Notes: generated from the letters alone by a model not told the origin. A stretch of DNA of 64,000 nucleotides from Abditibacterium sp. (GCA_965199495.1 CBDASK010000003.1:832001-896000); one strand, 5' to 3'; shown: positions 232 through 64,000, counted from the first letter of the stretch. Numbers and translations are program-made.

Positions 232-1680
232 TTACAAACGCCGAGTTGGGCGCGGCGCTGAACGATAGGAATCATCGCGCGGCAGATTGACGACTTCCAA
301 TGTTTGCGCGGCGCGCGCGCGTTTGCGGCGCTGGCGCAAAGCGGCGCGACGGCGCGCGGCGATCAAAGCCAAAACGAAAAGCGTGCCCGCGCCCGCCAGC
401 AACAGCGTGCCGTAACGTTTAATCGGCGACCAAAAACTGACGCGTTGGCCAACGGCGGGGACGGTTTTCGCCAGCAGAGTTTCGGGCACCGCGCCCGCCG
501 CCACGAGCGGAAAGCGCGCGATGGGTTTGCCATCAGCCCAGAAAACCGCGTCGCCCACGCGCGCGCCTTTTTCGATGGGCGCTTTTAAATCGCGCAATTC
601 CAATTTTTCTTGGAGCGAAGCCGACTCTTGATCGCGGAGCGGCAAGCGCGCCTGACCGACGGTGACGGCTTCGAGCGGAAACGCGCCGCCCGCGATGTCG
701 CCCGTCCACATCTGCGCGCCATCCTTGCCGACTTGCTGCGGACGATATTTCGCGAACGCGCGTTTGAGCAAAACTTCGCCATCGTTGAACGAACTGCCCG
801 GCATTGACTTCATCGTGACCGCCAACAGGCGCCACGGTTTGCCCGTCGTCGGATCGGGCATCGTCGCCGTCGCCACCAGACAGTTGCCCGCCTGACGCGT
901 GTAGCCGGTTTTGAGGCCGTCGCATTTGTCCCAGCGCCACAATAGTTTGTTGCGATTGAGCATCAATCGCGTCGGCCCGATTTTCCAGTTGCCATTAATC
1001 GTCACCGTTTTTTCGTCGGCGATCTGGTTCAAAACCGGGACGTGCGTCACCGCCTGCGCGATGAGCGCCAGGTCGCGCGGCGTGGTGTAATGATTCGGGT
1101 CGTGCAGCCCGTGCGGATTGACGAAGTGCGTGTTTTTCAGGCCCAATTCTTTGGCGCGGGCGTTCATCAACGCCACGAATTTGGCCTGCGTGCCACTGAT
1201 CCCTTCGGCCATATCCACGCACGAATCGTTGGCCGAGTGCACCAGCGCGGCTTCGAGCAATTCTTTCAAGGTGTGATTTTCGCCCGCCAACAACCCGATG
1301 CCGCTCTCGCCCGTGGCTGCGGCGGCGGGCGAGGCGCGAAGTATCTGGTTCAAATCGCCCTTTTCGGTCGCGACCAAACACGTCATCAACTTGGTTGTCG
1401 AGGCCGGAAATAAGCGTTTGTCGGGATTGCGCGCGTCCAAAATGCGGCCCGAATCCAAATCCATCACCACGTAACCGACCGCCGTAATCGGCGCGGGCGT
1501 GGCGATGGGCACCGCACCGAGCGTCGCTAAGGGCGGCGCATTGAGAGGCGCACCGGGCAATGCAGCCACGGCGGGTTTACGTTGCGGCACAAAGTCGCGC
1601 GCAAAGGCGGCGGGCGCGACGCAAAACGACGATGAGAGCAATAAAACTGTGGCAAAAATGGGGACGGCGCGCGAAATCAT
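232..1680 (-). CDS. D-alanyl-D-alanine carboxypeptidase (peptidase S11, PBP5/DacF-like) with C-terminal TM anchor
   Basis: SxxK (ASTTK), SxN (SAN), KTG (LKTGYT), NPHGL motifs; signal peptide. Confidence 0.93.
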   Translation of the reverse strand: MISRAVPIFATVLLLSSSFCVAPAAFARDFVPQRKPAVAALPGAPLNAPPLATLGAVPIATPAPITAVGYVVMDLDSGRILDARNPDKRLFPASTTKLMTCLVATEKGDLNQILRASPAAAATGESGIGLLAGENHTLKELLEAALVHSANDSCVDMAEGISGTQAKFVALMNARAKELGLKNTHFVNPHGLHDPNHYTTPRDLALIAQAVTHVPVLNQIADEKTVTINGNWKIGPTRLMLNRNKLLWRWDKCDGLKTGYTRQAGNCLVATATMPDPTTGKPWRLLAVTMKSMPGSSFNDGEVLLKRAFAKYRPQQVGKDGAQMWTGDIAGGAFPLEAVTVGQARLPLRDQESASLQEKLELRDLKAPIEKGARVGDAVFWADGKPIARFPLVAAGAVPETLLAKTVPAVGQRVSFWSPIKRYGTLLLAGAGTLFVLALIAARRRAALRQRRKRARAAQTLEVVNLPRDDSYRSAPRPTRRL

Positions 1681-1770
1681 CTCTTTTAATTTTACGAAAA
1701 CGAAAGATGCACGGATTTGGCGCCACCTAAAGAAGCGGTGGATATTTTCCGAACTTCACAGGAAGTTCAC

Positions 1771-1799
1771 TTGACTTCCTCTTCGATTCTTATTATCAT
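1771..1799 (+). promoter_or_regulatory. sigma70-type promoter TTGACT-N17-TATCAT, probably leaderless transcript; palindrome GAACTTC-N4-GAAGTTC just upstream (1751-1768)
   Basis: Consensus-like boxes at 17-bp spacing; ATG 7 nt after the -10 box. Confidence 0.6.
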
Positions 1800-1806
1800 C
1801 TATTCA

Positions 1807-2367
1807 ATGAAAAAAGCGTTTATCCCTCTTCTTCTGGGCGCGTCGCTGTGGATTATTCCGGCGCGCGCCTATGAAGAAGCCGATTTAATCGCCCTCGCGC
1901 GCGCCAATGTCGAGGCGGCGGTGCAAAACAAAACGCCGCCCGCGACCAGCCACGGCGAGCGGGCGCGCCCGGTTTTCGTGACGATTGAGCGCGCGGGCCA
2001 AGTCATCGGTTGTCGCGGAACTCTGCAAGCGCGTTTTGGTTCGCTCGAAGCCGAAGTTGGCAACGCGGCCCGCAGCGCCGCGCGCACCGATCCGCGTTAT
2101 CGGCCACTTACGCCCGCCGATTTGAAAAATTATTTAGTGACGGTGACGGTTATCGAGAGCCAGACGCCGCTGGAAATTGCGGACATCAGTTCGCTGCAAC
2201 GGGACGAAGGTTTGGTGTTGCAAAGCGGCAATCGCGTCGGCGTGGTTTTGCCGTGGGAAGGCAACGATGCGCGCGTTCGCTTAGGTTGGACCTACAAAAA
2301 AGCGGGCGTCGCGCCCGGCGCGAGTTGCCGTTTATATCGGTTGCAGGCGGAGCGGTTTCGCGGTTAG
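1807..2367 (+). CDS. AMMECR1-domain protein with signal peptide
   Basis: VFVTIE..G..GCRGTL, A..DPRY.PL, EGLVL..G..GVVLP, KKAG motifs; N-terminal hydrophobic stretch ending ARA. Confidence 0.85.
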   Translation: MKKAFIPLLLGASLWIIPARAYEEADLIALARANVEAAVQNKTPPATSHGERARPVFVTIERAGQVIGCRGTLQARFGSLEAEVGNAARSAARTDPRYRPLTPADLKNYLVTVTVIESQTPLEIADISSLQRDEGLVLQSGNRVGVVLPWEGNDARVRLGWTYKKAGVAPGASCRLYRLQAERFRG

Positions 2368-2382
2368 TGATGGAGAGTTTCA

Positions 2383-2545
2383 ACCTTTCACACCCCCTCT
2401 GTCCTTCGGACATTTCCCCTCCGAAAGGGGGAGAGGCGCTAAAACCGTCCGTTACTCGCGAAATTTGCGGCAATGTCGAGGGGAGAAGCGCCTCTCCCCC
2501 TTTCGGAGGGGGAGATGTCCGAAGGACAGAGGGGGTGTGAAAGGT
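2383..2545. repeat. Long inverted repeat (~58-bp arms, CCCC..GGGGGAGA-type hairpin element)
   Basis: acctttcacaccccctctgtccttcggacat...gaggcgct mirrored by agcgcctc...atgtccgaaggacagagggggtgtgaaaggt. Confidence 0.85.
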
Positions 2546-2590: not shown

Positions 2591-5500
2591 ATGAAAATCA
2601 CCTCAATACTCGCACTTTTACTTTGCTTTTGCGTCCCAACTTATGCGCAAACCAAAATCAAACAGCAACCGCCGACGGTCAACGTCGGCGTCGGGCGCGA
2701 TGTGGCGCCGGGACGCAAAATTCAACTCACGATCAACACGCGCAACCAGCCCAGCGTCAACGTTTCGGCGTGGCGCTTGAACGATTTCAAGTGGTTGCTC
2801 AATCGCGAGCGCAGTTCGCGCCCGCGTCCGCAAACAAGCGGCAGACCCGATTTGTTCTTCAAATCGAGCGTGGTTGCGCCCAATGAAAAGCCGAACAAAT
2901 ATCAAATTGACGTTTATCGTTCGCGCCAGATTAATTTGCCGTTGACGCGGCCCGGCGTTTATTTGGTCGAGGCCAGCGGCGGCGGCGCGTCCGATTGGGG
3001 CGTGGTCAACGTCACGAATTTGGCGGTTGTGGCCAAGCGTTCGCCGCATCATTTGCTGAGTTGGGTCACGGATTTTCACAGCGGCAAAGTTGTGACAAAT
3101 GCGCGCGTCGAATTGTGGAATCGCGATGGCAACGCAGTAAGCGGAGCGCGCAACCAAACCGGCGCCGACGGCGCGGCGCTGTTAAAAACTGGCGGCGGAA
3201 CCGATCAAGTTTTGGTCGTGACCAAGGGCGACGACGCGGCGGGCGTGACGGTTTCCAACGCCGAACCCGACGGAAAGTTAAAAACGCATTTTCAGACCGA
3301 CCGACCGATTTATCGGCCCGGCCAAACCGTGTTTTGGAAAGCCATTTTGCGCCGCACCCAATCGAACGGCTGGGCGCCCGTGGCTGGCGCCGAGTGCGCC
3401 GTGCAAGTGCGCGATTCCAAAGATGTCGTGCTGTTTCAGGAAACCGTAAAAACCGACGCGCGCAGCACGTTAAACAGTCAAATTTTGCTGCCGCAAGAGG
3501 GTTCGCTGGGCCAATATTCGATCACGATTACGCCGCCGGGTGAGGACGCGCAATACGGCAGTTTTACCGTCGCGGCCTATCGCAAGCCGGAATATCAAGT
3601 CCAAATCGAACCGCTCCAAAAGCGATATTTAGCGGGCGAAACCGTCAAATTTAAGCTGAGCGCGACCTACTTTTTCGGCGCGCCCGTGCCCAAAGCCACG
3701 GTGAAATATACCATTCGGCGCTCGCCGTTGCCGTTACAATGGAAAAGCGGCGACGACGATGACGTGGATTATTTTTACGGCGGCGACGGCAATCTTTACG
3801 ACAGCGATTCTTATAACCAAAACGATGCCGTCGCCGACGAATCGGCGGATTTGGACGACAAAGGCGAAGCGGTAATCAGCGTGCAATCGCCGCGCGATGC
3901 GCCCGACGCGACTTATACGATTTCGGCGACCATCACCGACGGTTCGCGGCGCCAAGTGGACGGAAGCGCCAACGCGCCGGTTTACAGCGCGGCCAAACGC
4001 GTTGCGGTCGCGGGCGAAGTTTCGTATGTGCCGGTCGGCTATTTGATGCCGCTGCAAATTCGCGTCGCCGATCTGGACGGCAAACCGACATCGGGCACGG
4101 TGAATTTGGAACTGCAACAACCGGTTTACAACGAAAAAGAAGGACGCTACCGTTACAAGAAAATCACCTCGACAACGGTGCAAGTGCCCGCGAGCGGCGT
4201 CGCCAAAGCGACATTGCCCGCGCAAAGCGAGGGAACGTTGCGGGTGCGCGCGACTTTAGCCGATGGCGGTGGGCGCACCGCGATTGCGATGTGGGATTTC
4301 TACGTTTCCGGCCCGATGAGTTCGTGGCAAAGCGAAGACAAATCACCGACTGTCACGGTCAAGCCGGATAAGCGCTCGTATAAGCCGGGCGAAACCATGA
4401 AAATTTTGGTTTCGACGAATGTCAAAGAACGTCCGATTTTGGCGACCATCGAAGGTTTGGACGTGTGGAATTATCGTGTGATCGGGGCGGGCAACGCGAG
4501 CTTTATCTGGAAAGTTCCGGCGCGCCTCGAACTTTCGCCCAATGCCTACGCCGCCGCCGCGCAGTGGACGCCAAACGGTTTAATCGGCGACAACAAAATT
4601 CTGCCGATTCCCGACCCGTCGCGCAAATTATTGGTCGAAATCAAAAGCGACAAAACGATTTACCGGCCCGGCGAAACCGCGCATTATACGCTCACGACGC
4701 GCGACGATGGTGGCAAACCGATTTCCGCCGAAGTCGCCGTGGCTGTGATTGATAGCGCCTTACTCAGCATTCGGCCCGACAACACGCCCGATTTATATGC
4801 GACGTTCTGGGCCAATCGCGAAAACTTCGTCGCGACTTCTTCGTCGGCGCCGACCGAAGTTTCGGGCGGCGCGTATCAGCGCGTCGGCAAAACCGCCAGC
4901 ATTCGCAGCGTTTTCAAAGACACAGCTTATTGGAACGCGCGCGTCGAAACCGATAAATCGGGCATGGCGAAATTTGATGTGCAAGTGCCCGGCAATCTGA
5001 CGACGTGGAAAGCTACGGCGCGCGCCATCACCGCCGATACGCGCGTCGGCATGGCGGAGTCTTCGATGATGGCGACGCGGCCCGTGACGATGCGTCTGGC
5101 GACACCGCGCCAATTAGTGCAGGGCGATGTCCTTGATTTAATCGCCAGCGTCAACAATCGCACCGACAAACCGCTCGATTTGGAAACCGCGCTGTCGGCG
5201 CAGGGATTATTGATTGAGGGCGCCAAAACCAAGACTTTGCCCGCGCCTGCTAAGGGCGAGGCGAAAACGACGTTTCCGATTCGCGCCAATTCTCTGCCCG
5301 AAAACGGCGAAGCGGTTTTGACCGGGCGCACCTTGGCTTCGAGCGCGACCAAAGAGAACGCCGAAGATTTGTCGGACGCCTTGGAAAGTCGAATTCCGGT
5401 TTTGCCCAACGGCATCGCACGGCGCATCGTGCAGGGCGGCGCGTTGGAAACCAAAATTGACGCAAAAATTCAATTGCCCGACGACCGCATCGAACCGGCG

Positions 5501-7057: not shown

Positions 7058-7930
7058 ATGAAACCCCAACTCACCATCGCCCTACTCTGCGCGCTCGCGA
7101 CGTGCAGCCACGCCGCGCCGCTCGTGGGCGAAAAGTTGCCTGTAATCGAACTCGCCAACGCGCGCGGGCAGACCAAAAGCGCGTGGCAAAGTGGGCGCGT
7201 CACCGTCGTTTCGTTCGTCGCGTTTTGGTGCGATACCTGGAAACCGCAATCGCAACGCCTCGACAGCGCGCGCGCCGAACTACGCGGTTTGCCGGTGGAT
7301 TGGACGTTTATTTCGGTGGATGGTCGTTGGAGCGGTTTGGCAAATCAGGGCACATGGAGCGACATCGCGCGCGGCGCATTGCTCGATAGCGGCAGCCGTT
7401 GGACGCACAAACTCGAAGTTTCGAGCGTGCCCTATACGCTGGTTGTGGATGGTAACGGCACGATTCGCTACTCGGCACAGGGCATCGCGCGCGGCGCGCA
7501 GTTGCGCCCAGCGATTGCGGCGGCTCTGTCTAATCAAGCGCCGCAAAACGGCGTTTTGCATCTGGCCTTCGACGATTTCCCTTCGCGCAATCCCAAAATG
7601 GACGACGAATTGTTGGACATTTTGCGCGCGCGCAAAATCAAAGTCAGCTTCTACGGCGACCCGGCGCGCTTGAAAATTTCGCCCGCGATCGTGGCGCGCG
7701 CGCGGCGCGAAGGCCACCAAATTCACGGCGTGTTTTCAAGCGCAAACAAAAGCGTAGTTGATCCGTTCGATTTCAAATCGCCCGGCGAAAACGAGATTTT
7801 GCGCCGCGCGTCGGGCGCCGTGGCTGCTAACAAGACACTACTATTGCGCGTCGGCGTGCGCCAGACGCTCAACGTTTTGCCGCGCTTGCTCGATTCGTTT
7901 CAGGCGCGCGGTTTGGATGTCGGCGCGTGA
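7058..7930 (+). CDS. Secreted TlpA/redoxin-like domain fused to a degenerate NodB-type polysaccharide deacetylase domain
   Basis: FVAFWCDTW, ISVD, VPYTLVVDGNG (thioredoxin fold); LAFDDFP..ELLDILR..KVSFY..REGHQI (NodB-like). Confidence 0.75.
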   Translation: MKPQLTIALLCALATCSHAAPLVGEKLPVIELANARGQTKSAWQSGRVTVVSFVAFWCDTWKPQSQRLDSARAELRGLPVDWTFISVDGRWSGLANQGTWSDIARGALLDSGSRWTHKLEVSSVPYTLVVDGNGTIRYSAQGIARGAQLRPAIAAALSNQAPQNGVLHLAFDDFPSRNPKMDDELLDILRARKIKVSFYGDPARLKISPAIVARARREGHQIHGVFSSANKSVVDPFDFKSPGENEILRRASGAVAANKTLLLRVGVRQTLNVLPRLLDSFQARGLDVGA

Positions 7931-8638: not shown

Positions 8639-10383
8639 TAAATCATCACCGCCTCTTTGCCGAGTTGCGTTTGCATCTCGACCAATTTTTTATACAAACC
8701 ACCATCCACCTCGACCAATTCATCGTGCGTGCCTTCCTCGACGATTTGTCCGCCGTCCAAAACGATGAGTTTATCGGCGTTTTTTACCGTGGATAAACGG
8801 TGAGCAATCGCCACCGTCGTGCGGCCCTTCATCAAGTTTTCTAAGGCGTTTTGAATCAAAAATTCACTTTCGGTATCAACGGCTGAGGTCGCTTCATCCA
8901 AAATCAGGATGCGCGGGTTGTCCAAAATCGCGCGCGCAATCGCGATGCGCTGGCGCTGTCCGCCCGAAAGTTTGGTGCCGCGTTCGCCGACGTGCGTATC
9001 ATAGCCGTGCGTTAATTTCATGATGAACTCGTGCGCATTGGCGGCACGCGCGGCTTCCAAAACATCCTCAAAACTCGCATCGGGCCGACCGTAAGCGATG
9101 TTTTCGCGAATCGAACCGTGGAACAAATATGGGTCTTGCGGCACCATCGAAATATGGGCGCGCAAATCTTGCAGCGAAATATCGCGCACATCGGTGCCGT
9201 CCACTTTCAGCGCGCCTTCTTTCACATCGTAAAAACGCGAAATCAGTTGCACCATCGTGGATTTGCCACTGCCCGAAGGCCCGACTAAACCGATCATCTG
9301 GCCCGGCTCGATGGTCAAATTGATATTGGTCAACGCGCTCTCGCTCGAATCGTAGCCGAAACTGAGGTTTTCCATTTCGATGCGCCCTTCCATCTGCGGT
9401 AGCGCAACGGCATTGGGTTTCGACTCGATGTCGGCGTCGGTATCCATAATTTCATAAATCCGCTCGGCGCTGGTAGTTGTGTTGGCGAACAGGTTGAACG
9501 TGTTGGCCAAACTCTGAACCGGCGAGTAAAACAGGCCGACGTAACCCGAAAACATCACGAACTCGCCGGGCGTGAGGCGCCCGCGCAACACTTCGTTGCC
9601 GCCGACGAACCAAACGATGACCAGACCAATGCCAAAGGTCAGGTTGACCGACGGAATGAAGACCGCTTGCAGGTTTTGCGTCGAAAGCCCGGCGACTTGA
9701 AATTCACGGCTTTTGCTGCGAAATTTATCGGCCTCGTGTTCTTCCTGACCGAAAATTTGCACGACGCGAATGCCGCCGATGGTGTCGCTCAAAATCGAGT
9801 TCATGTCGGCCAAACGCTTGCGCATCGTTTTATAAGACGCGCGAATGCGCGTCTGAAAAACGCGTGTGCCGATGGCGAGTGGAATGGTGGGAATCAGCAC
9901 CATAAACGCCAGATACGCGTTGGTATGAAACAACAGCGCCGCGATAATCAAGATGCGTAGCGCGTTCAAAGTAAATTCGCGCACGCCTTCGACGATGAAT
10001 TGCTCGAACACAGCCACGTCGTTGGTGACGCGCGACATAATGGCGCCCGTGCGCTTGTTGCCGTAAAACGCCAGCGACAGTTTTTGCAGGTGATCGTAGA
10101 GGTTGGTGCGCACCTGATACAGCACGTTGTGCGCGACGATGCCGGTCTGCTTCATGCGCAGGTGGTGCGAAATCGTGCGCAAAATCAGCGCGGCGATGAG
10201 AGCATAGGCCAGCATATGCAGGAGCGGCCCGTCGCGCAGGGGCAACGCTCTGTCAATCAGCGGCTTGGTGAGGGCGGGCGGCACCATTTCCATCGCGGTC
10301 ATGACCACGCTCCATAACATGGCGGCGGTCATGATCTTCCAGTGCGGGCGGATTTCGTTTAAAAGTCGGGCGTAGGTATTCAA
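8638..10383 (-). CDS. ABC transporter, fused permease/ATP-binding (MsbA-like exporter)
   Basis: GPSGSGKST, LSGGQRQR, ILILDEATS; six N-terminal TM segments. Confidence 0.95.
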   Translation of the reverse strand: MNTYARLLNEIRPHWKIMTAAMLWSVVMTAMEMVPPALTKPLIDRALPLRDGPLLHMLAYALIAALILRTISHHLRMKQTGIVAHNVLYQVRTNLYDHLQKLSLAFYGNKRTGAIMSRVTNDVAVFEQFIVEGVREFTLNALRILIIAALLFHTNAYLAFMVLIPTIPLAIGTRVFQTRIRASYKTMRKRLADMNSILSDTIGGIRVVQIFGQEEHEADKFRSKSREFQVAGLSTQNLQAVFIPSVNLTFGIGLVIVWFVGGNEVLRGRLTPGEFVMFSGYVGLFYSPVQSLANTFNLFANTTTSAERIYEIMDTDADIESKPNAVALPQMEGRIEMENLSFGYDSSESALTNINLTIEPGQMIGLVGPSGSGKSTMVQLISRFYDVKEGALKVDGTDVRDISLQDLRAHISMVPQDPYLFHGSIRENIAYGRPDASFEDVLEAARAANAHEFIMKLTHGYDTHVGERGTKLSGGQRQRIAIARAILDNPRILILDEATSAVDTESEFLIQNALENLMKGRTTVAIAHRLSTVKNADKLIVLDGGQIVEEGTHDELVEVDGGLYKKLVEMQTQLGKEAVMI

Positions 10384-11765: not shown

Positions 11766-12513
11766 TTTTACTGATATTGATCGCGGCGCCCCGCGCCATC
11801 GCCCCGCCGGGCCAATCGTGATGCGCCCGAACTGGCGCGAACTGTTGTTTTTGCACTGGCCATTCGAGCCGCACATCGTTCAAGATTTATTGCCCGCCGG
11901 TTTAGAAGTGGACACGTTTGAAAATCGCGCTTATGTCGGATTGGTGCCGTTTCGCATGGAGCAAGTGCGTCCGAACTGGGTGCCGAATCTGGGCCGTTTC
12001 GGCAGGTTTTACGATACGTTCGCCGAGTTAAATGTGCGCACTTATGTCGTGCGCGATGGCGTGCCGGGCGTGTGGTTTTTCTCGCTCGATGCCGCCAGCG
12101 CTCTGGCGACAATCGCGGCGCGCGCGTGGTTTCGGTTGCCCTACTTCAAAGCGCGTATGCGCAGCCACGTCGCCGATAATGGCACGATTTCGTATTGGAG
12201 CAAACGCTTGTGGCCCGCACCTTTGCCCGCGCTTTGCAGCGCCAAATATCGCCCACACGGCGAGATTTTTCACGCGCAAACCGGCACGCTCGAAGATTTC
12301 TTGGTCGAACGCTACGTCCTCTATTCGGCGCGCGGTGGCTGCTTGTATCGCGGGCGCGTGCATCACACGCCGTATCCGTTGCAAAACGCCGAACTATTGA
12401 ATTTACGCGAAAGTTGTTTCGCGGCGGCGGGTTTTGCACGGCCCGACGAAGCGCCGCACATTTTGTATTCGCCCGGCGTTGATGTTTCAGTTTGGCCGCA
12501 GGAGCGGGCGTAA
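11752..12513 (+). CDS. YqjF family protein (DUF2071)
   Basis: W..LLFLHW, ELNVRTYV, GVWFFSLDA, FLVERY. Confidence 0.92.
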   Translation: MSPNNFTDIDRGAPRHRPAGPIVMRPNWRELLFLHWPFEPHIVQDLLPAGLEVDTFENRAYVGLVPFRMEQVRPNWVPNLGRFGRFYDTFAELNVRTYVVRDGVPGVWFFSLDAASALATIAARAWFRLPYFKARMRSHVADNGTISYWSKRLWPAPLPALCSAKYRPHGEIFHAQTGTLEDFLVERYVLYSARGGCLYRGRVHHTPYPLQNAELLNLRESCFAAAGFARPDEAPHILYSPGVDVSVWPQERA

Positions 12514-13362: not shown

Positions 13363-15504
13363 ATGCCCACCGAAGTCATCGCCCCGCCGAAACTGCGTCG
13401 CATCGCGCTCGCAGGTAATCCGAACGCGGGCAAAACCACGCTCTTTAATGCGCTGACCGGAATGCGCCAGAAAGTCGGCAATTATCCCGGCGTCACCGTC
13501 GAAAAGAAAGAGGGCCAAGCTCGTTTAATTGACGGCGCACAGGCCACGATTTTGGATTTGCCGGGCACTTACTCGCTGACGCCCAAATCGCCCGACGAGG
13601 AAGTCGCGCGCGACGTCTTGTTAGGTCTGCGCGCCGATACGCCCGCGCCCGACGCGGTTTTGATCGTGGTTGATGCGTCCAATTTGGAGCGTAATCTCTA
13701 TCTGGCAACGCAGATTCTCGAATTGGGTTTGCCTTCTGTCATCGCACTCAACATGGTGGATGTAGCCACGGCGGCGGGCAAGACCGTGGACGCCGGGCAA
13801 TTATCGCATGATTTGGGCTGCCCGGTCTTCCCGATTATCGCCGTCAAAGGCGAAGGTTTGGACGCGTTGCGCGCCGAACTCGCCGGAGATTTGCCGATTC
13901 CCCATCCGCCCGCGCTCGATTTGCCGCCCGCGCTCGAAAGCGCACGGACGCAATTGGCGCGCGCTATTGAAACCGATTCGGACAACGCCGACGATGCGAC
14001 CGTAACGAGCGGCCCACGCGGTATTGCGCTACGATTGTTGTGCGGTAACGCTTCCGCCGACACGGTTGCGCGCGTTTACGGCGAAAACGTCGGTCACGTT
14101 TTGGACGAAGTGCGCGCGCAAAATAAGGTGCGCCCGGCGCAGGAATCCGGCCCGCGCTACAAAATGCTGGGCGCCGTCGTCACCAACGCGCTCGAACTAT
14201 CGGGGCGCGAACTGTCGCAGGATTTCACCGACCGCGCCGACGCGATTTTGACGCACAAAGTCTGGGGCATCGTCGCGTTCGCGGCGATTGTTTTGTTGGT
14301 TTTTCAATCCATTTACAGCTTCGCCAACCTACCGATGGAATGGATCGAGGCGCTACAAACCGGTTCGCAAACGTTTTTGTCCACGCATTTGCCCGCCGGG
14401 CCGCTACGCGATTTGTTGGTTGATGGCGTCGTGGCTGGTGTCGGCGCGGTCATCGTGTTTTTGCCGCAAATTCTGATTCTGTTCTTCTTCATCGGCATTT
14501 TGGAAGATTCGGGTTACATGGCGCGCGCCGCGTTCATCATGGACAAAACGATGGGCCGCGTTGGGTTGCACGGGCGCTCGTTCATCCCGCTTTTGTCGAG
14601 TTTCGCGTGCGCGATCCCCGGCGTAATGGCGACGCGCACGATCTCCTCAAGGCGCGACCGCATGACGACGATTCTCATCGCGCCCTTAATGAGTTGCTCG
14701 GCGCGACTGCCGGTTTATACCTTAATGATCGGCGCGTTCATTCCCGAACGTTACTTGTTCGGATTTTTATCGCAACGCGCGGCTGTGATGTTTTCGATGT
14801 ATGTGTTGGGTGTCGTGGTAGCAATGGCGGCAGCTTATGTTTTCAAGAAAACGATTTTCAAAGGCCCACCGCCCGCGCTACTTTTGGAACTTCCACCCTA
14901 CAAAGTGCCCGCGCCGCGCAATGTTTTGGTCACGATGTGGGAGCGTGGCGCACAATTTTTGGTGCGCGCCGGAACCACGATTTTCGCGTTGTCGGTGATT
15001 TTGTGGTTCGCGCTCAATTATCCGAAGCCATCGCCAGCACAGTTAGCCGCGCAACCCGACGACAACGCGCGCGCGGCTTTAATCGCGCGCAATTCGGCGG
15101 CGGGCACGGTCGGACGTTTCATCGAACCGACGATTGCGCCGTTGGGCTACAATTGGAAAATCGGCGTCGGTTTGATCGGCGCGATGGCGGCGCGCGAAGT
15201 CTTCGTCTCAACGATGGGCACGGTTTACAGCACGGGCGCCGATACCGACGAGGAATCGAAGCCGCTCCGCCAAAAATTGGGCGAAGACAAATGGCCCGAC
15301 GGTCGCCCGGTCTGGACAACAGCCACGGCGATCTCGATCTTGGTTTATTTCGTCATCGCCATGCAATGCGTCTCGACATTAGCGGTCGTCAAACGCGAAA
15401 CTAACAGCTGGAAATGGCCGATTTTCATGCAGGTTTACATGACGGGATTGGCTTGGATTGCCGCGTTTATCGCGTTTCACGGCGCCAAAATGTTTGGACT
15501 TTAA
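13363..15504 (+). CDS. feoB: Ferrous iron transport protein B
   Basis: GNPNAGKT, NYPGVTVE, DLPGTYSL, LEDSGYMAR, CSARLP. Confidence 0.98.
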   Translation: MPTEVIAPPKLRRIALAGNPNAGKTTLFNALTGMRQKVGNYPGVTVEKKEGQARLIDGAQATILDLPGTYSLTPKSPDEEVARDVLLGLRADTPAPDAVLIVVDASNLERNLYLATQILELGLPSVIALNMVDVATAAGKTVDAGQLSHDLGCPVFPIIAVKGEGLDALRAELAGDLPIPHPPALDLPPALESARTQLARAIETDSDNADDATVTSGPRGIALRLLCGNASADTVARVYGENVGHVLDEVRAQNKVRPAQESGPRYKMLGAVVTNALELSGRELSQDFTDRADAILTHKVWGIVAFAAIVLLVFQSIYSFANLPMEWIEALQTGSQTFLSTHLPAGPLRDLLVDGVVAGVGAVIVFLPQILILFFFIGILEDSGYMARAAFIMDKTMGRVGLHGRSFIPLLSSFACAIPGVMATRTISSRRDRMTTILIAPLMSCSARLPVYTLMIGAFIPERYLFGFLSQRAAVMFSMYVLGVVVAMAAAYVFKKTIFKGPPPALLLELPPYKVPAPRNVLVTMWERGAQFLVRAGTTIFALSVILWFALNYPKPSPAQLAAQPDDNARAALIARNSAAGTVGRFIEPTIAPLGYNWKIGVGLIGAMAAREVFVSTMGTVYSTGADTDEESKPLRQKLGEDKWPDGRPVWTTATAISILVYFVIAMQCVSTLAVVKRETNSWKWPIFMQVYMTGLAWIAAFIAFHGAKMFGL

Positions 15505-18826: not shown

Positions 18827-19369
18827 GTGCGCTATTTGTTGCCCGGTTTGTGGCACTTCGCGGCGGCGATGGCGTTTGCGGCCTCGTTCGGCGTTTTCCA
18901 AAAGCAGGACTTGACTTTCTGGTTGCAACAACCGGTTTTCACCATCGCTCTGATCGTTTGTTCATCGGCCTTTTTTTTCGTACCGGACAGATGGTCGAAA
19001 AAGGGTTTGCTCAAGTTTTTTCATTACCCGTTGCCCGATTGGGACGTATTGTTTTTGGGGCCAGCCTCGCATCGCAACTGGCTGACGCACTCGCCGTTTT
19101 TGGCGATTTTGTGTTTGGGCGCGCTGTGGAAATGGCCGCACAGCGCGAGTTTCCCTGGCGTCATGGCGGGCGCGATGGGCGTTTGTATTGGCGTGGGCAG
19201 CCATCTGTTTTGGGATTGCGTGGGCAGCAAGCAACACAAAATCATCGTGGTGCCGCATTGGATTCATCTGCGCGAAGTCGCCTCGCGATTGTATTTGCTC
19301 ATTGGCGCCTTCATTTGCCTCGCCGTGGCTGGTGCCATCGCTGCGGCGTTTTCGGTGAAACCGATTTGA
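18827..19369 (+). CDS. Membrane-bound metal-dependent hydrolase-like protein (YdjM-like motifs)
   Basis: LPDWD, HRNWLTHS, SHLFWD; several TM segments. Confidence 0.7.
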   Translation: MRYLLPGLWHFAAAMAFAASFGVFQKQDLTFWLQQPVFTIALIVCSSAFFFVPDRWSKKGLLKFFHYPLPDWDVLFLGPASHRNWLTHSPFLAILCLGALWKWPHSASFPGVMAGAMGVCIGVGSHLFWDCVGSKQHKIIVVPHWIHLREVASRLYLLIGAFICLAVAGAIAAAFSVKPI

Positions 19370-35519: not shown

Positions 35520-35670
35520 TAACTACACGATTTGCCGCGCCCGCACAGTTGAAGCGCAAAGGAAACGAGGTAAACTATGCGGCGTCTGTAATAAGTATTA
35601 CGCCACGAATGGTTCACGCTTGATTTGTGGCAAAAGTCGGTTATTCACTCAATTGAAACGGAGCTTGTCC

Positions 35671-36546: not shown

Positions 36547-36591
36547 AGCCACCGCGTCTTCCAACCCTTTCATTTCCAACCTCCCACTCGC

Positions 36592-39398: not shown

Positions 39399-39436
39399 TT
39401 CGACATCCGATATTTTATTTACGACCCCGCAACATC

Positions 39437-40591: not shown

Positions 40592-40693
40592 TTTGCGCGT
40601 GATGCCAGCCAAAAGCATCTCGTTTTAGTGCGTTCTTCCCTTGCAGTGAGGAACAAACGTTCCATCTCCTCAAGTCTGAGGAGGATTTCCATC

Positions 40694-44728: not shown

Positions 44729-44741
44729 ATTAATTCCACGC

Positions 44742-44774
44742 AAAAAAGACCGCAGCAGTGCTGCGGTCTTTTTT
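44742..44774. terminator. Intrinsic terminator closing the minor pilin operon
   Basis: aaaaaagaccgcagc-agt-gctgcggtctttttt. Confidence 0.88.
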
Positions 44775-44861
44775 GCATTCTGTATCTGAGCCATAATGCG
44801 TAAAACACTATAAATTTTTCCGTTGACACCTGAAAAATCCCGCGACCCGCCTATTGACAAC

Positions 44862-44890
44862 TTGCAAACAGCATTAAATATTCATAAAAT
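44862..44890 (+). promoter_or_regulatory. sigma70-type promoter TTGCAA-N17-TAAAAT for paralogue 2
   Basis: 17-bp spacing, AT-rich context, downstream of terminator. Confidence 0.55.
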
Positions 44891-44976
44891 TAAGCGCGCA
44901 AAAAGAAGGTACGTTGACCCACAATCTGGCGCTCTGAAGGAGCCAATAGTTCCCAGACGCGATAAGGATTTCACCC

Positions 44977-47900
44977 ATGAAAAGCCATATTCGTCCGAAC
45001 TCGCTCCGACTTGAAACCAACTATTCGCCTGTAATTCGTTCGGCCTATCCCGCCGTGGCTGTTAAATCGCGTCGCCAAGGTCAGGCGCTGTTGTTGGCGG
45101 TTCTGATCATGCTTTTGGCGGCGCTGTTGAGCGCGGGCTTTTTGGCGGTGGTGTCGGGCAACTTGAACCAGACGGCGCGCATCGCCGACAAAACCAAAGC
45201 CATCGAAGCCTCGCGCGCTGGGATTGTTTTCGCCAACGAGCAACTGTCGGGCAGCACGCAGGGCGATTTGTGGCGCCCGGTTGATGTCAGCCCCGCGCCG
45301 CCGCCGGGTGCGACGGGCTACGATTTTTATTACTCACAACTCGACAAAGCCCAGGGCTGGGCCAACCAATTGCCAGTCACAGCGCCCGGTTATCGCGATA
45401 CGGCCTTCGCCAAGTTTCCCGCGCCCGACCAGCCCAGCAGTGATGCGCCCAAGTTTTTAGTGCGCGTGCAGGAATTGACGACTGATCCGACGGCGCCCGA
45501 TTACGATGCCAATCACGCGGGCGAACTGAAAATCACTTCCATCGGTTTGTCCGACGATGATCCCAACGTTTTTCATACTTCAATTGCCTATAAAAATGGA
45601 CGACGCAAATCGCCGTGGGCCAGCGCACTGCGCTCGATTTCTAATTGGAAATTCGGCAACGACGCCAAAAATACCGGCGTGCCCTATGCGACCAAACCGC
45701 AACTTATAAGTGCGACGAGCTTTCCTGCGAATAACGTTGAGTTCGCTGTTGATGCCACCGACAAACCGTTGTTTTCGGATGACGATGTGCCATTCAACGT
45801 TGTTATCGTGAAAAAAGATGTGGCTCCCAGTGTGCGCGGCGCAGTCGTGACCAAAGTCAGCGCCGATGGAAAACAACTGACTTTTGCCCGACTCGAAACA
45901 ACAATTGGCGCGGACGAAACGATTGAAAAAGCGGCGGCGCTGGGCATCGGAGGCACAATTGATTTGCTCAACACCGGCACGCCGACGCCTTATGCGACCG
46001 ATCTGCCGCAACCCAACGGAATACTGGCCAATGGCAGTATTTGGTTGCAGGGGCAAATTCAACTCTCGAACCTGAGCAAAAACGGCACGAAACTGATGAC
46101 TTCGGGTTCGCTGGCGATTGATGCGACCGATACCGAAAAGAAGCCGGTGATGGAAAGTGGCGATGTCGGGCCGACAAATACGAACGATCCCACAAGCAAC
46201 AAAATCGTGGCTTCGAGCCAGACCAACTTTCCCGGCAATCTGGTTTTGACAAGCGCCGCCGCCTCGGACGGCGTAAAGCCGACCGATTTGATCAACGATG
46301 GCTGGGACAAAATTGACGCGCCAACGCTCGGTTTGGATTATTCGAGTGGGCGCGATGTGCAACCGTTTGCGCCAGTCAAACTCGATAGCCCGGAAAATTT
46401 AGGGCGTTATCGCGCCCTCGCGCGCAACTCGGCGGGCGGCGTTACCATTGATAATCGCGACGACATCGAGCGCGTCGGCACGAATCCGATGACGCAAAAG
46501 CAACTCGTCGAAATGTTGACTTCGCCCGCCACAGCAGCCACGCCGCCCGACACCGCGCGTTTGGGCGTGGCTGCTTTGCCAAGTGCGACGAACGTTTCGC
46601 TCGAACAGCGCCATTTGCGCGGTTGGGTCGGGACGGACGAGTTTTTGGCGCGCGGCGCTTTGGTTGAACTGATTCAGGCGACGGGCGATATTCCGCGATT
46701 GCGCGTCACGCTCGACGCGCGCAGCGACGCCAATCCCGACGGGCCAGACGCCAATAAAACGTTTCGCGGCGACAACGGCCAATTGCAAGCGGGCGTTTAC
46801 TCGCGCGTTTTCGAGTGGCCCAAAAGCGGGACTTTGCTGGCCGAAGGCAATCTGCGCATTCGCGGCAACGTCAATCTGTCGAATTTGCCGGCGGGCGCCA
46901 ACTCGGCGGATTTTCCCTCGCTGACGGTCGTTTCGATGAATAATATTTACATCGAAGGCGCGCTTTCCCTCGACAGCACAGACGCGGCGGGCAACCCAAT
47001 TCCCGTTTTGAATCGCAAAAAATTGATGTTATTGGCGCGCAAAAACGTCATCGTCAATCCGACGCGCGCCGTCATCGGGCGCACCGATGCGCAGACCATC
47101 GCGACTAACACGGCGGCGCTGACTTTTACCGGAACATCAACCGCCAAAACGCTGAGCGTCGCCAATAATTTGCTTTTCAACGCGGGCGATTACGTCACGA
47201 TTGGCATCGGCCAAAATAAAAGCGGGCGCGGTTTAATCACCGAAGTTGACCCCTTGAGCAACAATATCAAAATCAGTTCGCGGGACGTATTCACAGTTGC
47301 AGCCACGGCGCCGGGCGCGGTTTACAACGTGAGATCGTTGCTCGAAGCGCGCGCCTTCAATGCTCCGGCGAATCCCGCCGATAAAGTTTTCTTTTCCCTC
47401 GTGAAAGTTGAGAACGCGCCCGGTAGCGTCGAAAACGTGGTGAACCGACGCATTTTGGTGCCGTTCGCCGATAATACGACGCCAGCCTATAACAAAATCG
47501 TGCTCGATCATGTCGCTGATTTGAAGAAAAACGCGGGCGGTGAAGTCATCGGTTTGAACATCAAAGCGGAAGATTTCTCGGCAGCGTTTCCAAAGCCCGC
47601 CGATTTCACGGCGGTTTTGACCAACAAGCAATATCTGCTGGGCGCGACGCAAAATATAGATCCAAGTCGCGACGGCATCTCGTTGGCCAACAAGCTGTTG
47701 CGCACTTACAATAACTTCACGCCCAATAACACGAAAGTTCTGCCCGCCGCCCCGACTTCGGCGCTGACAATTCAGCAGTTACGCGCCGAAACCTCGATGG
47801 TCGCGCAGCAAAGCACAATGCCCGACAAAGGCTACAAATATACAGCCACGCCGGTTGATTTCCCCGAAGCGGGCGCCGATCCGACGAAAAGCCTCGACAA

Positions 47901-48963
47901 ATTACCCTACTACGCCTTGGCTGGCGTTGGAGTTCGCTACGAAACCGGCGAAACTTTCGTGGCCCCCAACACCTCGCCCGCTAACAACCGGCGCCAGGAT
48001 TTCAACACGGCGCAGGGCATCACTATTCCCATTGCGACTTCGATTGAGATTGATTTGAATGGCGCGAGTTCGTGGGCCATCCCCGATTCACAGTCGCTCA
48101 AGACGAACTATTTCGGCTTTAATCGCCTTCTGAGCGGCGCCGACGATGCGACGACGGTAGACCGCTCTTTTTATCAGCCCGCCGATTTAACAATCAGAAG
48201 CACGCTCGATGCGCGCGTGCTCGATTTCCTCGGTCATCCTCCGGTCAACGACATCAGCAGTTTCGTTTTGCAGCGCGCGGCGCCGACCAACGCGACGGCG
48301 GCGCCCGCGTTCGCCTTGTTACCGGATTATCGTTTGCGCGCGCTCAAGTGTGAATATACCAACCTCAACAGCAAGGCGATAAAACCTGTCGCCAACGCCC
48401 TCGAAATCAACGCGTTTGTCTATGCGCAAGAGGGCAGTTGGCTGGTCATTCCCGGCGATTATTTCCGTTCCAATCCCGCAGTGCGCGGCATCGGAGGCGC
48501 GGGTGGACTGACGGGCAGTTACATTGATTACAACGGCAACAAAGTGGCGGACGCCAACGAATTTATCTACGATGGCGTCGGTAGCGGATTGGGAAACCGG
48601 GTCGCCGATTTGAATCGCAACGGCATCGCGGACAAAGGCGAAAAAGAAGCCGCGCTCCGTTTCGTGCGCAGTAACATGGCGCCAATTCGGTTTTTGGGCG
48701 CCATCGTCGAAAACCAAACGGCTGTTGTCGCCGACGTGGCTGCTATTACCACTGGCAACGCGCCGATTGTCAAAGGCGCGGTGCAGGATTGGACGGACAA
48801 GTGGGCGACCTACGACGATAGCGCCGCCAGCAACGCGGATGTCGGCAAGCCTCAACTTTTTGGCTTCATCTCTTACGTTTACGATCCGTCGCTCGCCAAG
48901 GGAACTGCGGGCGCAAACCAATTGCGCGTGCCCATCACCGACGATTTGATTTATCAAGAATAG
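44977..48963 (+). CDS. Giant PilX-like minor pilin / putative tip adhesin, paralogue 2
   Basis: Colinear with 40694-44728 from RRQGQALLL to VPITDDLIYQ. Confidence 0.8.
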   Translation: MKSHIRPNSLRLETNYSPVIRSAYPAVAVKSRRQGQALLLAVLIMLLAALLSAGFLAVVSGNLNQTARIADKTKAIEASRAGIVFANEQLSGSTQGDLWRPVDVSPAPPPGATGYDFYYSQLDKAQGWANQLPVTAPGYRDTAFAKFPAPDQPSSDAPKFLVRVQELTTDPTAPDYDANHAGELKITSIGLSDDDPNVFHTSIAYKNGRRKSPWASALRSISNWKFGNDAKNTGVPYATKPQLISATSFPANNVEFAVDATDKPLFSDDDVPFNVVIVKKDVAPSVRGAVVTKVSADGKQLTFARLETTIGADETIEKAAALGIGGTIDLLNTGTPTPYATDLPQPNGILANGSIWLQGQIQLSNLSKNGTKLMTSGSLAIDATDTEKKPVMESGDVGPTNTNDPTSNKIVASSQTNFPGNLVLTSAAASDGVKPTDLINDGWDKIDAPTLGLDYSSGRDVQPFAPVKLDSPENLGRYRALARNSAGGVTIDNRDDIERVGTNPMTQKQLVEMLTSPATAATPPDTARLGVAALPSATNVSLEQRHLRGWVGTDEFLARGALVELIQATGDIPRLRVTLDARSDANPDGPDANKTFRGDNGQLQAGVYSRVFEWPKSGTLLAEGNLRIRGNVNLSNLPAGANSADFPSLTVVSMNNIYIEGALSLDSTDAAGNPIPVLNRKKLMLLARKNVIVNPTRAVIGRTDAQTIATNTAALTFTGTSTAKTLSVANNLLFNAGDYVTIGIGQNKSGRGLITEVDPLSNNIKISSRDVFTVAATAPGAVYNVRSLLEARAFNAPANPADKVFFSLVKVENAPGSVENVVNRRILVPFADNTTPAYNKIVLDHVADLKKNAGGEVIGLNIKAEDFSAAFPKPADFTAVLTNKQYLLGATQNIDPSRDGISLANKLLRTYNNFTPNNTKVLPAAPTSALTIQQLRAETSMVAQQSTMPDKGYKYTATPVDFPEAGADPTKSLDKLPYYALAGVGVRYETGETFVAPNTSPANNRRQDFNTAQGITIPIATSIEIDLNGASSWAIPDSQSLKTNYFGFNRLLSGADDATTVDRSFYQPADLTIRSTLDARVLDFLGHPPVNDISSFVLQRAAPTNATAAPAFALLPDYRLRALKCEYTNLNSKAIKPVANALEINAFVYAQEGSWLVIPGDYFRSNPAVRGIGGAGGLTGSYIDYNGNKVADANEFIYDGVGSGLGNRVADLNRNGIADKGEKEAALRFVRSNMAPIRFLGAIVENQTAVVADVAAITTGNAPIVKGAVQDWTDKWATYDDSAASNADVGKPQLFGFISYVYDPSLAKGTAGANQLRVPITDDLIYQE

Positions 48964-51669: not shown

Positions 51670-52052
51670 AGTTTCGATTCGTTCAGCAGACGCGCGGCGC
51701 GCGGCGAAAGCGCGACATTTTTGCGCGCTAAAAATTCTAAAGTTTGCATCAGCCAATTGCGCTGAATGATATTCGCGGTGAAAGTCCACGGCGTATCGTC
51801 CCAAGTTAGGATGAGATTATTGGTTTTAATTTTCCCGCAGTAAGCATCAGCCACGGCGACGTGGCTGTATGATTTGCGATGCGTTTTGATGACTTTCAAT
51901 TCGAGTTCGTCCTCGAACAAGCGGAGTTTCGGATTGGCGCTGTTGGTCGAAATCGCCCACCAGAACGGCATCCGCGCGTGACCGGTGAAAGTCGCGTAGA
52001 TTGGGACGGCGACGCCTTTGGTGGGGATTGGTGAGGTGAGATTGAATGGCAT
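51666..52052 (-). CDS. Hypothetical protein inserted between ileS and lspA
   Basis: 128-aa ORF with ATGA overlap to lspA. Confidence 0.7.
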   Translation of the reverse strand: MPFNLTSPIPTKGVAVPIYATFTGHARMPFWWAISTNSANPKLRLFEDELELKVIKTHRKSYSHVAVADAYCGKIKTNNLILTWDDTPWTFTANIIQRNWLMQTLEFLARKNVALSPRAARLLNESKL

Positions 52053-57444: not shown

Positions 57445-57464
57445 ACCGCCAATATTCACGAACC

Positions 57465-60369: not shown

Positions 60370-60373
60370 ACCA

Positions 60374-60874: not shown

Positions 60875-61270
60875 TTAGGCCCGCGCTTTGAGCGCCTTGT
60901 TCATTTCGTCGAAGCCACGCCGAGTGTCTGCATCCATACTGCGGGCGAAAAGGGGCACAAGAAGTCCGCTAAACTTCTCGCTTTGAGTGAAACGCACCCT
61001 GTTTTGATCCCCCGGCTCCAACGCAAAGCTGTGTTCGCCATCGAATATCTTCGGAAGCAACAAGCGGCCCAGCCACCGCATTTTCCGGTCGGCGCGGACT
61101 TTGAGCAACACCGGACGAAACGTTATCGCGCGTTTGCCGGACGCTCTCGCTGCTCCTGCGTGATTTTAGACTTCGGTAAACGCGCTAATACGCCGCACGC
61201 GATTATTGCTAATTTTGGTAAAATCGCGCATGGACTCAGACGACGTGGCTGCATCGCGGGAAGTCACGGC
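60875..61270 (-). pseudogene. Degraded SRPBCC (polyketide cyclase-like) gene
   Basis: C-terminal WLGRLLLP.IFDGEHSF.LEP...RFTQSEKFSGLLVP..GF.EMN.ALK.RA intact; 5' part disrupted. Confidence 0.7.
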
Positions 61271-62765: not shown

Positions 62766-62768
62766 TTT

Positions 62769-62978
62769 TTATGCTTGCCACTCCTGTTGCGCGTAATTGA
62801 CTACCCGTTTTCCATCCAAACTTTTGTGTAGGTTGGCCGAAATAAAGCCTGGCTGGTGAGACATGAACTTGTCTGTGGCTTCGGTGAGAATGTCCACCAA
62901 ACGCTGCTGATTTTCCGGTTCAACGGTAAAAACGTTGATGAGCGTCACGCACTTGTGGTCTGTCGAGATGGTTGTCAT
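62769..62978 (-). pseudogene. Antibiotic biosynthesis monooxygenase (ABM) family, apparently C-terminally truncated
   Basis: TLINVFTV.PE.Q, QPGFISANLH.SLDG.RVVNYAQ, then ends after 5 residues. Confidence 0.7.
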
Positions 62979-63007
62979 GGTATTTTTCTTCGGTTGTTTT
63001 GTCGCCG

Positions 63008-63382
63008 TTACGAGTTGCCGATGCGCCCCAGATGAGTGTCCTGAAAGCTGGACGTAAGTTTAAGACCGTAATTTATCGACCGGTCGGCGCTGATGTGAGT
63101 CGCCCAGATCAGCGCGATGGCCACGAGCGTTTCATTTTTGGTGAAATATCCAAGCGCGCCCACGGCAATCGGCAGGGCGTAATTATGAGCGGTATTGTAA
63201 CTGACGGCACCCCAGCGCGGGCCGAGCAAGTAGCCCAGCATAGAAAGATCGGGCGCCAAGAAAAGCACAGCAAACAACAGCCAGCTAAAGCCGCTTTGGT
63301 AATAAGCAAAAACGCTAAGTAGAAGAAAAGCTATCGCTTCTATGCGTAATAATTTGATGATAGAAGTATTTATATTTCGCAT
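63008..63382 (-). CDS. DUF4260 family membrane protein
   Basis: LLRIE, LAPDLSMLGYL.G, YN..H, HI..DR..YGLK, THLG. Confidence 0.92.
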   Translation of the reverse strand: MRNINTSIIKLLRIEAIAFLLLSVFAYYQSGFSWLLFAVLFLAPDLSMLGYLLGPRWGAVSYNTAHNYALPIAVGALGYFTKNETLVAIALIWATHISADRSINYGLKLTSSFQDTHLGRIGNS

Positions 63383-63543
63383 TCTGACGAGTAATTTGGC
63401 TGGCACCAGATAAAGTAGCGCGAGTTCAACTGAAAATTCTTTGGCTCAGAGCGGCGAATGAGCCAACGGCACCGACCGCTACAACGTATTTTTTGGCGCG
63501 ATGCTCGCCTTCAAGTGAGCGAGTCATCGCTGCGCTGACGCCG

Positions 63544-64000
63544 TTAGCTTTCAACGGTGGTCTGGAGCAGTTCAGTGCGGTATTTGGGGGCGAGTTCTTT
63601 GGCTTTAGCCCCAAACGCGGCTTGTGCGGCGTCATCGAGTTTGGGCGCCGGAGTTGTGCGCGTGGGTAGAGCCACGCCGACTTGCTCGAAGAACTCTTCC
63701 TGACCCGACGGGCCGCAGATGCACAACAGGCGCATCGCTTTATCGGTTGTGTTGTGGAACTCGTGCGGTGCGTTGGCGGGGATGTGCAGGGTTTGTCCGG
63801 CTTTAACCGTTGACTTTTGGCCGCGAAACGTCGCTTCGACTTCTCCTTCGAGCACGATAAACGATTCCTCGAAATCGTGGCGATGCGGCGCCGGGCCGCC
63901 GCCGGGCGCAACGAGCATATCAATGAGACAGTAGCGCCCATCGGTATTTTCGCCGGACAACAAAACGGTATAAGTGTCGCCAACGACGCCGATGTGCGGC
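63544..64000 (-). CDS. Cupin domain protein (5' end outside the window)
   Basis: PGGGP.PHRH.FEE.F.VLEG, IPANAPHEF.N. Confidence 0.92.
   Translation of the reverse strand, partial: PHIGVVGDTYTVLLSGENTDGRYCLIDMLVAPGGGPAPHRHDFEESFIVLEGEVEATFRGQKSTVKAGQTLHIPANAPHEFHNTTDKAMRLLCICGPSGQEEFFEQVGVALPTRTTPAPKLDDAAQAAFGAKAKELAPKYRTELLQTTVES

Follow-up and report, generated by a model that had tools for sequence, protein, structure and literature searches.

The 64-kb stretch considered here (hereafter the window; Abditibacterium sp., GCA_965199495.1 CBDASK010000003.1:832001-896000, from the genome that we label G000) contains a type IV pilus locus and a short DNA word dispersed on both strands. The initial annotation described this word as an over-represented, strand-symmetric and frame-independent CGTGGCT(GC) and proposed it as a candidate DNA uptake sequence (DUS). 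Comparison with dinucleotide shuffles bears out the abundance: the 9-mer CGTGGCTGC is found at all 19 positions listed for it, 10 on the plus and 9 on the minus strand (shuffle mean 0.79; 0 of 100 shuffles reach 19), and the 7-mer core CGTGGCT, put at ~60 copies, is present 61 times (shuffle mean 8.5, maximum 18). The over-representation is real, but the word had been drawn too short. In full it reads CGVCGTGGCTG(CT), its flanks being graded from −3 to about +11, where C, T, G and T follow the 11-mer CGVCGTGGCTG with falling weight. The overlapping inverted pair is also where it had been reported, and the four genes of the pilus motor are present (Table 1). Two AT-rich islets (18060-18800 and 55630-57450) do have zero copies, as remarked, but this is weak evidence by itself because the islets are short and only ~0.7 and 1.7 copies would be expected at the average density of the genome; the depletion of mobile DNA across the genome carries that argument.

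Table 1. Copies of the word and pilus genes in the window.
Feature	Position	Strand	Remark
61 dispersed CGTGGCT copies	1312..63676	both	motif search; 19 extend to CGTGGCTGC, 26 to CGVCGTGGCTG
11-mer	1563..1573	-	in D-Ala-D-Ala carboxypeptidase gene
11-mer	1947..1957	-	coding
11-mer	4735..4745	+	in alpha-2-macroglobulin gene
11-mer	7105..7115	-	coding; same gene as 7816 copy, opposite strand
11-mer	7816..7826	+	coding; same gene as 7105 copy
11-mer	10011..10021	-	in ABC transporter gene
11-mer	12162..12172	-	in DUF2071 gene
11-mer	15320..15330	-	in feoB
11-mer	19321..19331	+	coding
11-mer	20190..20200	-	in secD
11-mer	22189..22199	+	in secF
11-mer	24003..24013	+	coding
11-mer	25106..25116	-	in rmlA
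11-mer	25998..26008	+	coding
11-mer	27773..27783	-	coding
11-mer	35393..35403	+	in pilD
11-mer	35461..35471	-	in pilD, 68 bp from plus copy, opposite strand
11-mer	38899..38909	-	in minor pilin gene
11-mer	45051..45061	+	in second large PilX-like gene
11-mer	46535..46545	-	close intragenic inverted pair with 9-mer at 46566
11-mer	47300..47310	-	coding
11-mer	47843..47853	-	coding
11-mer	48732..48742	+	coding
Inverted pair	51848..51867	both	two opposite-strand 11-mers sharing overlapping CG
11-mer	61241..61251	+	outside predicted genes
pilB	29065-30972	+	pilus motor, context only
pilT	about 31763-33049	+	pilus motor, context only; AIRNLIRE, which we take as the PilT signature
pilC	33206-34423	+	pilus motor, context only
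pilD	34518-35519	+	pilus motor, context only
Four genes of prepilin type and a pair of paralogous PilX-like genes (~1,300 aa each)	35620..48963	+	context, candidate readers only

The G000 assembly, which is 95% complete, consists of a 4.72-Mb chromosome (C3) and two small contigs, and was compared within a set of 27 genomes of its family, Abditibacteriaceae as judged from homologue names, 13 of them in the same genus as G000 (labels G0xx). GTGGCT is the most over-represented 6-mer of the genome (z 76 under a maximal-order Markov model). The 7-mer occurs 4,533 times on the chromosome and the 11-mer 2,113 times in the genome, 1,046 forward and 1,067 reverse, against 27 copies of the reversed word. 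Most 11-mers (92%) are coding. Over 3,605 predicted genes (score of at least 20), 1,915 copies were counted, compared with 52.6 under within-gene synonymous shuffling (36-fold) and 146 under a dicodon model (13-fold), and intergenic DNA holds 172 against 1.3 expected. All six frames are enriched, as the claim of frame independence had it, and the enrichment survives both of these nulls, a codon- and dipeptide-preserving comparison having been named beforehand as one that could refute it. Codon or peptide bias as the source of the word is rejected.

Such a word could still be a by-product, of coding bias, of remnants of repetitive extragenic palindromic (REP) sequences or miniature inverted-repeat transposable elements, or of the avoidance of close direct repeats. 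Two frames do dominate, and the paired copies in one relative (G004) are REP-like, their inner ends carrying GTAG and their loop being semi-conserved; G000 itself has separate GTAG-type REP families. The 13- to 36-fold excess over codon-aware nulls in every frame speaks against coding bias, and unlike REP/REPIN elements, which are inserted, self-complementary units outside genes, the G000 word (the G004 pairs may be an exception) is coding in 92% of copies and shows almost no indels. With the spacing results given below, a by-product origin is largely refuted for G000 and we find it barely credible. As a separate observation, G000 has three or more families of extragenic repeats that bear no relation to the word (e.g., C3 positions 83230, 743404 and 2026014), two of them GTAG-type REP-like hairpins with about 110-170 copies each.

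Forward and reverse copies are balanced in every 100- and 200-kb bin, and the plus-minus difference is under-dispersed at 5-50 kb, with about half the chance variation. The absence of replichore polarity holds at any scale, in agreement with the symmetry first reported; polarity was another of the refuting conditions named beforehand, and it does not hold. Leading and lagging strands are not assignable on this chromosome because skew of the replication type is nearly absent from it: at fourfold sites, GC skew has a standard deviation of 0.036 per 20 kb, compared with a sampling error of 0.023.

The history of the word was followed in codon-wise orthologue alignments against samples of eight relatives (6-264 genes each). 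The G000 7-mer sites are identical in 74% of 76 cases in G011, another carrier (anagram controls 45%), in 20% of 289 cases in G004, which carries a different dialect (controls 34%), and in 0-7% in six non-carriers (controls 8-16%). There are almost no indels at word sites, and silent divergence between G000 and G011 falls to 0.094 within 10 bp of a site from about 0.25 beyond. Because of this identity pattern, the rarity of gaps and the low silent divergence at sites, we conclude that the word was written by point substitution and is held at the DNA level, including at silent sites. It apparently arose at an amino-acid cost: codons of the motif have an amino-acid identity to non-carriers of 0.52 and other codons one of 0.69, a difference that may reflect either changed residues or a preference for variable positions.

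Acquired DNA is poor in the word. The plasmid-like contig (C1, 24.7 kb) and the phage-like contig (C2, 64.6 kb) have 0 and 1 copies, respectively, over 89 kb in all. Of the 16 largest gaps between copies, many fall, as judged from gene starts, in recombinase-bearing islands, prophage or low-GC DNA. Several stretches of a prophage-like region at ~4.22-4.29 Mb of C3 are word-poor as well.

The most distinctive property of the word is how its copies are spaced on each strand. With close inverted pairs and with tandem copies at less than 60 bp set aside, single 11-mers lie 60-400 bp from another on the same strand in 21 cases against 145 expected, and from one on the opposite strand in 148 cases against 145 (p = 5e-25). 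The same-strand avoidance recovers almost linearly to 1-1.5 kb, and by 1.5 kb the deficit is gone. Control 7-mers (n=70) have a same-strand ratio of 1.23 +/- 0.09 with a minimum of 0.99, and of 4,133 frequent 6- to 9-mers that were screened, none but those belonging to the motif fell below z = -3. The deletion hazard of close direct repeats was rejected as the cause: pairs that differ at the V base are avoided like identical ones (0.21 and 0.17, respectively), and direct pairs of other frequent 9-11-mers are in excess. Among relatives, the single copies of the different word of G017 behave similarly (same strand 5/21.6, opposite 17/20.9, p=0.007). In G004 the effect is seen for the 7-mer at 60-600 bp (13/27 vs 28/27, p = 0.014); it is not significant at 60-1,000 bp, and the 9-mer has no evident effect.

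As a positive control we used the uptake signal sequence (USS) in 800 kb of the 2.1-Mb Haemophilus influenzae chromosome (G043:C1:1-800000). At 60-400 bp, same-strand pairs number 29/51 and opposite-strand pairs 55/51 (p = 0.003), an effect that fades by 600 bp, while control words (n=60) have a minimum ratio of 0.82; in the first 400 kb alone it is borderline, and weaker there for shorter cores. A known uptake sequence thus shares the same-strand fingerprint, more weakly. The Chi-like GNTGGTGG of H. influenzae, taken as a negative control, has no same-strand avoidance, with copies too few to weigh. Even spacing of USS is attributed to Karlin et al. in PMC1939737; a full-text literature search, with supplements outside its reach, found no report of orientation-specific spacing of uptake sequences.

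An interval of 1-2 kb per strand is also the scale of Okazaki fragments, and the word could be an intracellular chromosome-maintenance site, either a priming or restart site on either template strand or the site of a nucleoid protein. The near absence of skew in G000 fits this idea, since samples of the non-carriers G012 (L040-L045), G010 (L090-L092) and G002 (L109-L111) reach +/-0.2-0.4 at fourfold sites, but non-carrier G006 is also low in skew. No skew flip across oriented sites and no 10.5-bp helical phasing were found around the G000 sites, and an essential replication signal would hardly be absent from 10/13 genus genomes or so free in its dialects. We regard such a function as very unlikely. 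The skew of G012 changes sign over 20-40 kb of one chromosome, a pattern suggestive of multiple origins or of frequent inversions.

A hyper-abundant word was found in 10/27 family genomes: the G000 word or a close dialect in 3, RAGTACTY palindromes in 6 and AGTACGGTCGA in 1 (G017). This count is a lower bound: the unbiased word screens drew on 40- to 140-kb samples of 16 relatives and passed over seven non-carriers, and the family-wide counts did not include the G017 word. The words of the family fall into at least three groups, among which no common core is apparent. In the genus, the G000 word is present in 3/13 genomes, namely G000, G011 (1,776 11-mers) and G004; the first two share the dialect CGVCGTGGCTGCT, and G004 has GGACGTGGCTGGTGT, with 2,717 copies of ACGTGGCTG. 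In 440 kb of G017 there are 160 overlapping inverted pairs, and a further 141 copies stand alone. Its pairs look like terminators: 152/160 are outside homology-defined genes, 17 lie between convergent and 5 between divergent genes (random 48:74), and 103/160 have a T4 tract. The 46-47 divergent inverted pairs in 400 kb of G004 are less clear as terminators (5 convergent vs 5 divergent). Some candidates did not hold. The word GTCACGGT, seen in a 40-kb sample of G041, has only 283 copies genome-wide; an apparent G006 word and one G004 stretch proved to be a CRISPR-like array and a 13-bp tandem repeat (~40 perfect units, sample L035:18730-19250); and 25 viral contigs had one match each to the G004 dialect, none being enriched. 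CGTGGCT is also about twofold enriched in samples of G014 (L093-L095) and G017 (20/9, 20/10), which carry other words, perhaps a weak older or second signal. No report of hyper-abundant words in Abditibacteriaceae was found in a full-text literature search, although oligomer surveys in supplements or subscription journals could list them.

The palindromic group raises the possibility of a mechanism like that proposed for highly iterated palindrome 1 (HIP1) of cyanobacteria, in which a resident methyltransferase would have its target within the word, and copies would be made and kept by repair directed by methylation or by transformation that depends on it; one-strand methylation of an asymmetric site would give per-strand spacing. 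RAGTACTY reaches 2,695-4,371 copies in 6/27 genomes, about 1 per kb, and 0-117 in the other 21, where AGTACT is strongly avoided; its extended forms, TCGAGTACTCGA, CGAGTACTCG and GCAAGTACTTGC, are centred on AGTACT. At least 17 loci of G000 encode a methyltransferase domain, many of them within resident DNA rich in the word, and MutL is present in 5/5 genomes examined. HIP variants and a repair model (PMC4390886), HIP1 periodicity (PMC5861425) and a link between HIP1 and transformation (PMC13756078) have been described. The words of G000, G004 and G017, on the other hand, are non-palindromic, 11-18 bp long and graded at their flanks, lacking a sharply bounded target of 4-8 bp. Around the G000 sites there is no halo in which silent divergence is reduced or base composition changed, and no carrier-specific methyltransferase is evident in five-genome inventories, which were compared as lists without orthology. 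For the G000 word this explanation seems rather unlikely. Like HIP1, the RAGTACTY words of the six relatives are hyper-abundant and palindromic, have lineage-specific extensions and belong to hosts without RecBCD or AddAB; the G000 word differs in being non-palindromic, any cognate methyltransferase being hypothetical. G000 itself has only 5 RAGTACTY sites, and its avoidance of this word and of many 6-bp palindromes (TTCGAA, GCCGGC, CGGCCG, CTCGAG, CCGCGG, CGATCG, GACGTC and ATCGAT) is very strong. In G006, 5/6 RAGTACTY sites fall within a 63-kb stretch (C24:116000-180000) and in G005 5/9 are on contig C98, possibly acquired from, or mis-binned with, a relative of the AGTACT dialect.

Beyond the pilus motor of the window, G000 encodes secretins, ComEC, ComEA and DprA. 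Competence genes are not a marker of carriers: ComEC and secretins are present in 27/27 family genomes, and ComEA and DprA in 5/5 tested. The unusual pilins, which had been offered in support of an uptake function, do not support it for the same reason, since a search with the first large PilX-like gene found homologues in 25/27 genomes, non-carriers included. The two tandem PilX-like proteins (window 40628-48963) have no Pfam or clear PDB match and are fast-evolving; the tandem is present in the three genus carriers and G017, and genus non-carriers have mostly one strong copy. Structure modelling, which covered only this large PilX-like protein of the window (1,200 residues, predicted local distance difference test score 78), gave a pilin-like N-terminus (Z 6.1, root-mean-square deviation 3.9, 102 aligned) and weak partial matches to beta-barrel and carbohydrate-binding-module-like folds. 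As a ComZ-like receptor it was set aside (best PDB sequence match E 0.14, no Foldseek hit at E<=0.001, weak partial VIA matches), although a 1,200-residue query is no test of absence. Because its orthologues in G011 retain 56-60% identity, compared with about 90% for other genes, a variable adhesin would fit better than a conserved reader. In G012 the ComEC and ComEA frames (L016, L125) are short, 558 and 62 aa, and competence may be decaying there.

One gene pair does divide carriers from non-carriers within the genus. AddA is present in 10/10 genus non-carriers, in 0/3 genus carriers and in 0/14 genomes of other genera, hence in 0/10 carriers family-wide, and AddB-length PF12705 frames are distributed identically. 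In the 95% complete G000 assembly, tblastn found neither AddA nor AddB, PF12705 giving only 299-aa and Dna2-like frames, and RecC was not found in 5/5 carriers tested. In G006, addA and addB lie about 25 kb apart on contig C42. The word could then be a Chi analogue of a break-repair pathway independent of AddAB and RecBCD, in which a resection helicase-nuclease would stop at the first copy in the correct orientation, or load RecA there; because a two-ended break requires copies on both strands, these would be unpolarised and evenly spaced on each. Avoidance on the same strand to 1-1.5 kb with the other strand ignored is what a directional enzyme predicts, and the asymmetry of the word is likewise Chi-like. 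Marine picocyanobacteria have recBCD (PMC5101192) and HIP1 is described as widespread outside them (PMC4390886), a possible parallel. Several facts make us think a Chi analogue unlikely. No cognate enzyme was found: the sole large helicase-nuclease, Dna2-like, was rejected as a reader, being present in 4/10 carriers, non-syntenic, broken in G011 and present in non-carrier G016. Known Chi sites are 5-8 nt long, and words of 11-18 bp, palindromes and terminator-like pairs do not resemble them; the G000 word also lacks replichore polarity, and its carriers lack RecBCD and AddAB. USS obeys the same spacing rule. Seven family genomes are without AddA and without a detected word, and the AddAB pattern may be one event, because a single marker leaves the branching order of the genus unsettled. 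The Dna2-like protein (G000:C3:4111365-4115630, L033) is itself a candidate defence gene: it has 1,421 aa with an N-terminal PD-(D/E)XK nuclease and a superfamily 1B (Dna2/Upf1-like) helicase, is found non-syntenically in 5/27 family genomes, and its broken copy in G011 stands beside methyltransferase genes.

What is observed is a real, strongly favoured, clade-specific DNA word with family-wide dialects and a clear per-strand spacing rule. It is favoured at the DNA level in any frame and on either strand, is built by point substitutions and kept at silent sites, and each strand is separately spaced at about one copy per 1-2 kb, as in the USS of H. influenzae. From this genomic pattern we consider it somewhat probable that the word is a DUS/USS-like self tag of natural transformation, arisen independently of those of Neisseriaceae and Pasteurellaceae. 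The word would be bound by a competence protein of the surface or periplasm, a minor pilin being the most likely candidate, so that DNA bearing the word would be taken up preferentially; biased uptake and recombination would then raise its frequency until a further nearby copy is useless. Redundancy limited to same-strand neighbours would imply a directional read-out, the word setting which strand or direction enters or survives, and inverted pairs would serve both strands together and double as terminators.

The uptake interpretation of the initial annotation is supported in its genomic part but not in its pilin argument. Every DUS/USS signature tested at the genome level was found: the density and strand symmetry, the use of all frames, an origin in point mutations, the depletion of mobile DNA, the dialects, the USS-like spacing and, in two relatives, inverted pairs lying outside genes. 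The features by which DUS/USS are recognised, i.e., copy number, symmetry, substitution origin, mobile-DNA depletion, dialects and competence genes (the last not carrier-specific), are all present, while neither the polarity nor the cognate enzyme of Chi was found and the palindrome of HIP1 is seen in the six relatives but not in the G000 word. By analogy, the G000 word may work like DUS/USS. With Pasteurellaceae USS it has in common a density of about 0.4-1 per kb, equal strands, mostly single coding copies, point-mutation origin, depletion in acquired DNA and same-strand avoidance, the last as measured in H. influenzae. With Neisseriaceae DUS, which are read by ComP, the family shares lineage dialects around a shared core (CGVCGTGGCTGCT vs GGACGTGGCTGGTGT) and, in G017 and G004, inverted pairs outside genes with T tracts. 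That uptake sequences originate by point mutation, are depleted in acquired DNA and are subject to drive is described in PMC7811141, and PMC3630211 treats the dialects and inverted pairs of DUS.

Several observations weigh against this interpretation. No sequence-specific reader was found, the competence genes tested occurring equally in non-carriers, as do ComEC, secretins and the large PilX-like gene; in contrast to Neisseriaceae, no ComP-like reader was identified, the words fall into at least three groups, one of them palindromic, and only 10/27 genomes carry one despite universal ComEC. An uptake model does not predict that every carrier lacks AddAB, and the AGTACT palindromes look more HIP1- or methylation-like. 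Intergenic density of the 11-mer is about half the genic density and only 26/168 close pairs are outside genes, both unlike typical DUS. Compared with USS (AAGTGCGGT), for which ComN/PpdA is the predicted receptor (PMC12616744), the G000 word is unrelated in sequence and more degenerate (one-mismatch variants up to 315 vs 2,112, against up to 17 vs 275 for USS), has no AT-rich flanking segments beside it, shows stronger and longer-ranged same-strand avoidance, forms few intergenic pairs, belongs to hosts without RecBCD or AddAB and is a putative rather than an established uptake sequence. The directional read-out has no known basis, because USS orientation had no effect on uptake in the H. influenzae experiments of PMC1939737.

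A more speculative proposal, in our judgement a distinct long shot, is that one Abditibacteriaceae reader system has switched between HIP1-like palindromes and DUS-like asymmetric words, acting at a strand-specific step common to uptake and break repair in lineages without AddAB or RecBCD. If true, a single principle, one tag in the correct orientation on each strand every 1-2 kb, would underlie HIP1, DUS/USS and Chi alike, and the way in which USS copies of H. influenzae avoid same-strand neighbours would reveal an unrecognised directional step in classic uptake.

The literature consulted places sequence-specific uptake in two host-associated families, Neisseriaceae and Pasteurellaceae, the HIP1 of cyanobacteria being a third, debated case; 10.1101/2025.10.24.684340 names the two families, with DUS/USS at terminators. 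Abditibacteriaceae, an environmental family that has received little study, would add an independent case in which one genus holds both carriers and non-carriers and the dialects are palindromic as well as asymmetric. This would offer a natural experiment on the origin, switching and loss of tags, in which the reader could be found by co-variation. Comparing same- and opposite-strand spacing is a cheap and general discriminator, and the USS signal in H. influenzae suggests a directional step unseen in uptake experiments. In practice, adding the word may aid transformation of these bacteria. Finally, we note that the G000 chromosome contains, at C3:2765500-2776000, a CRISPR-like array of about 131 repeats.

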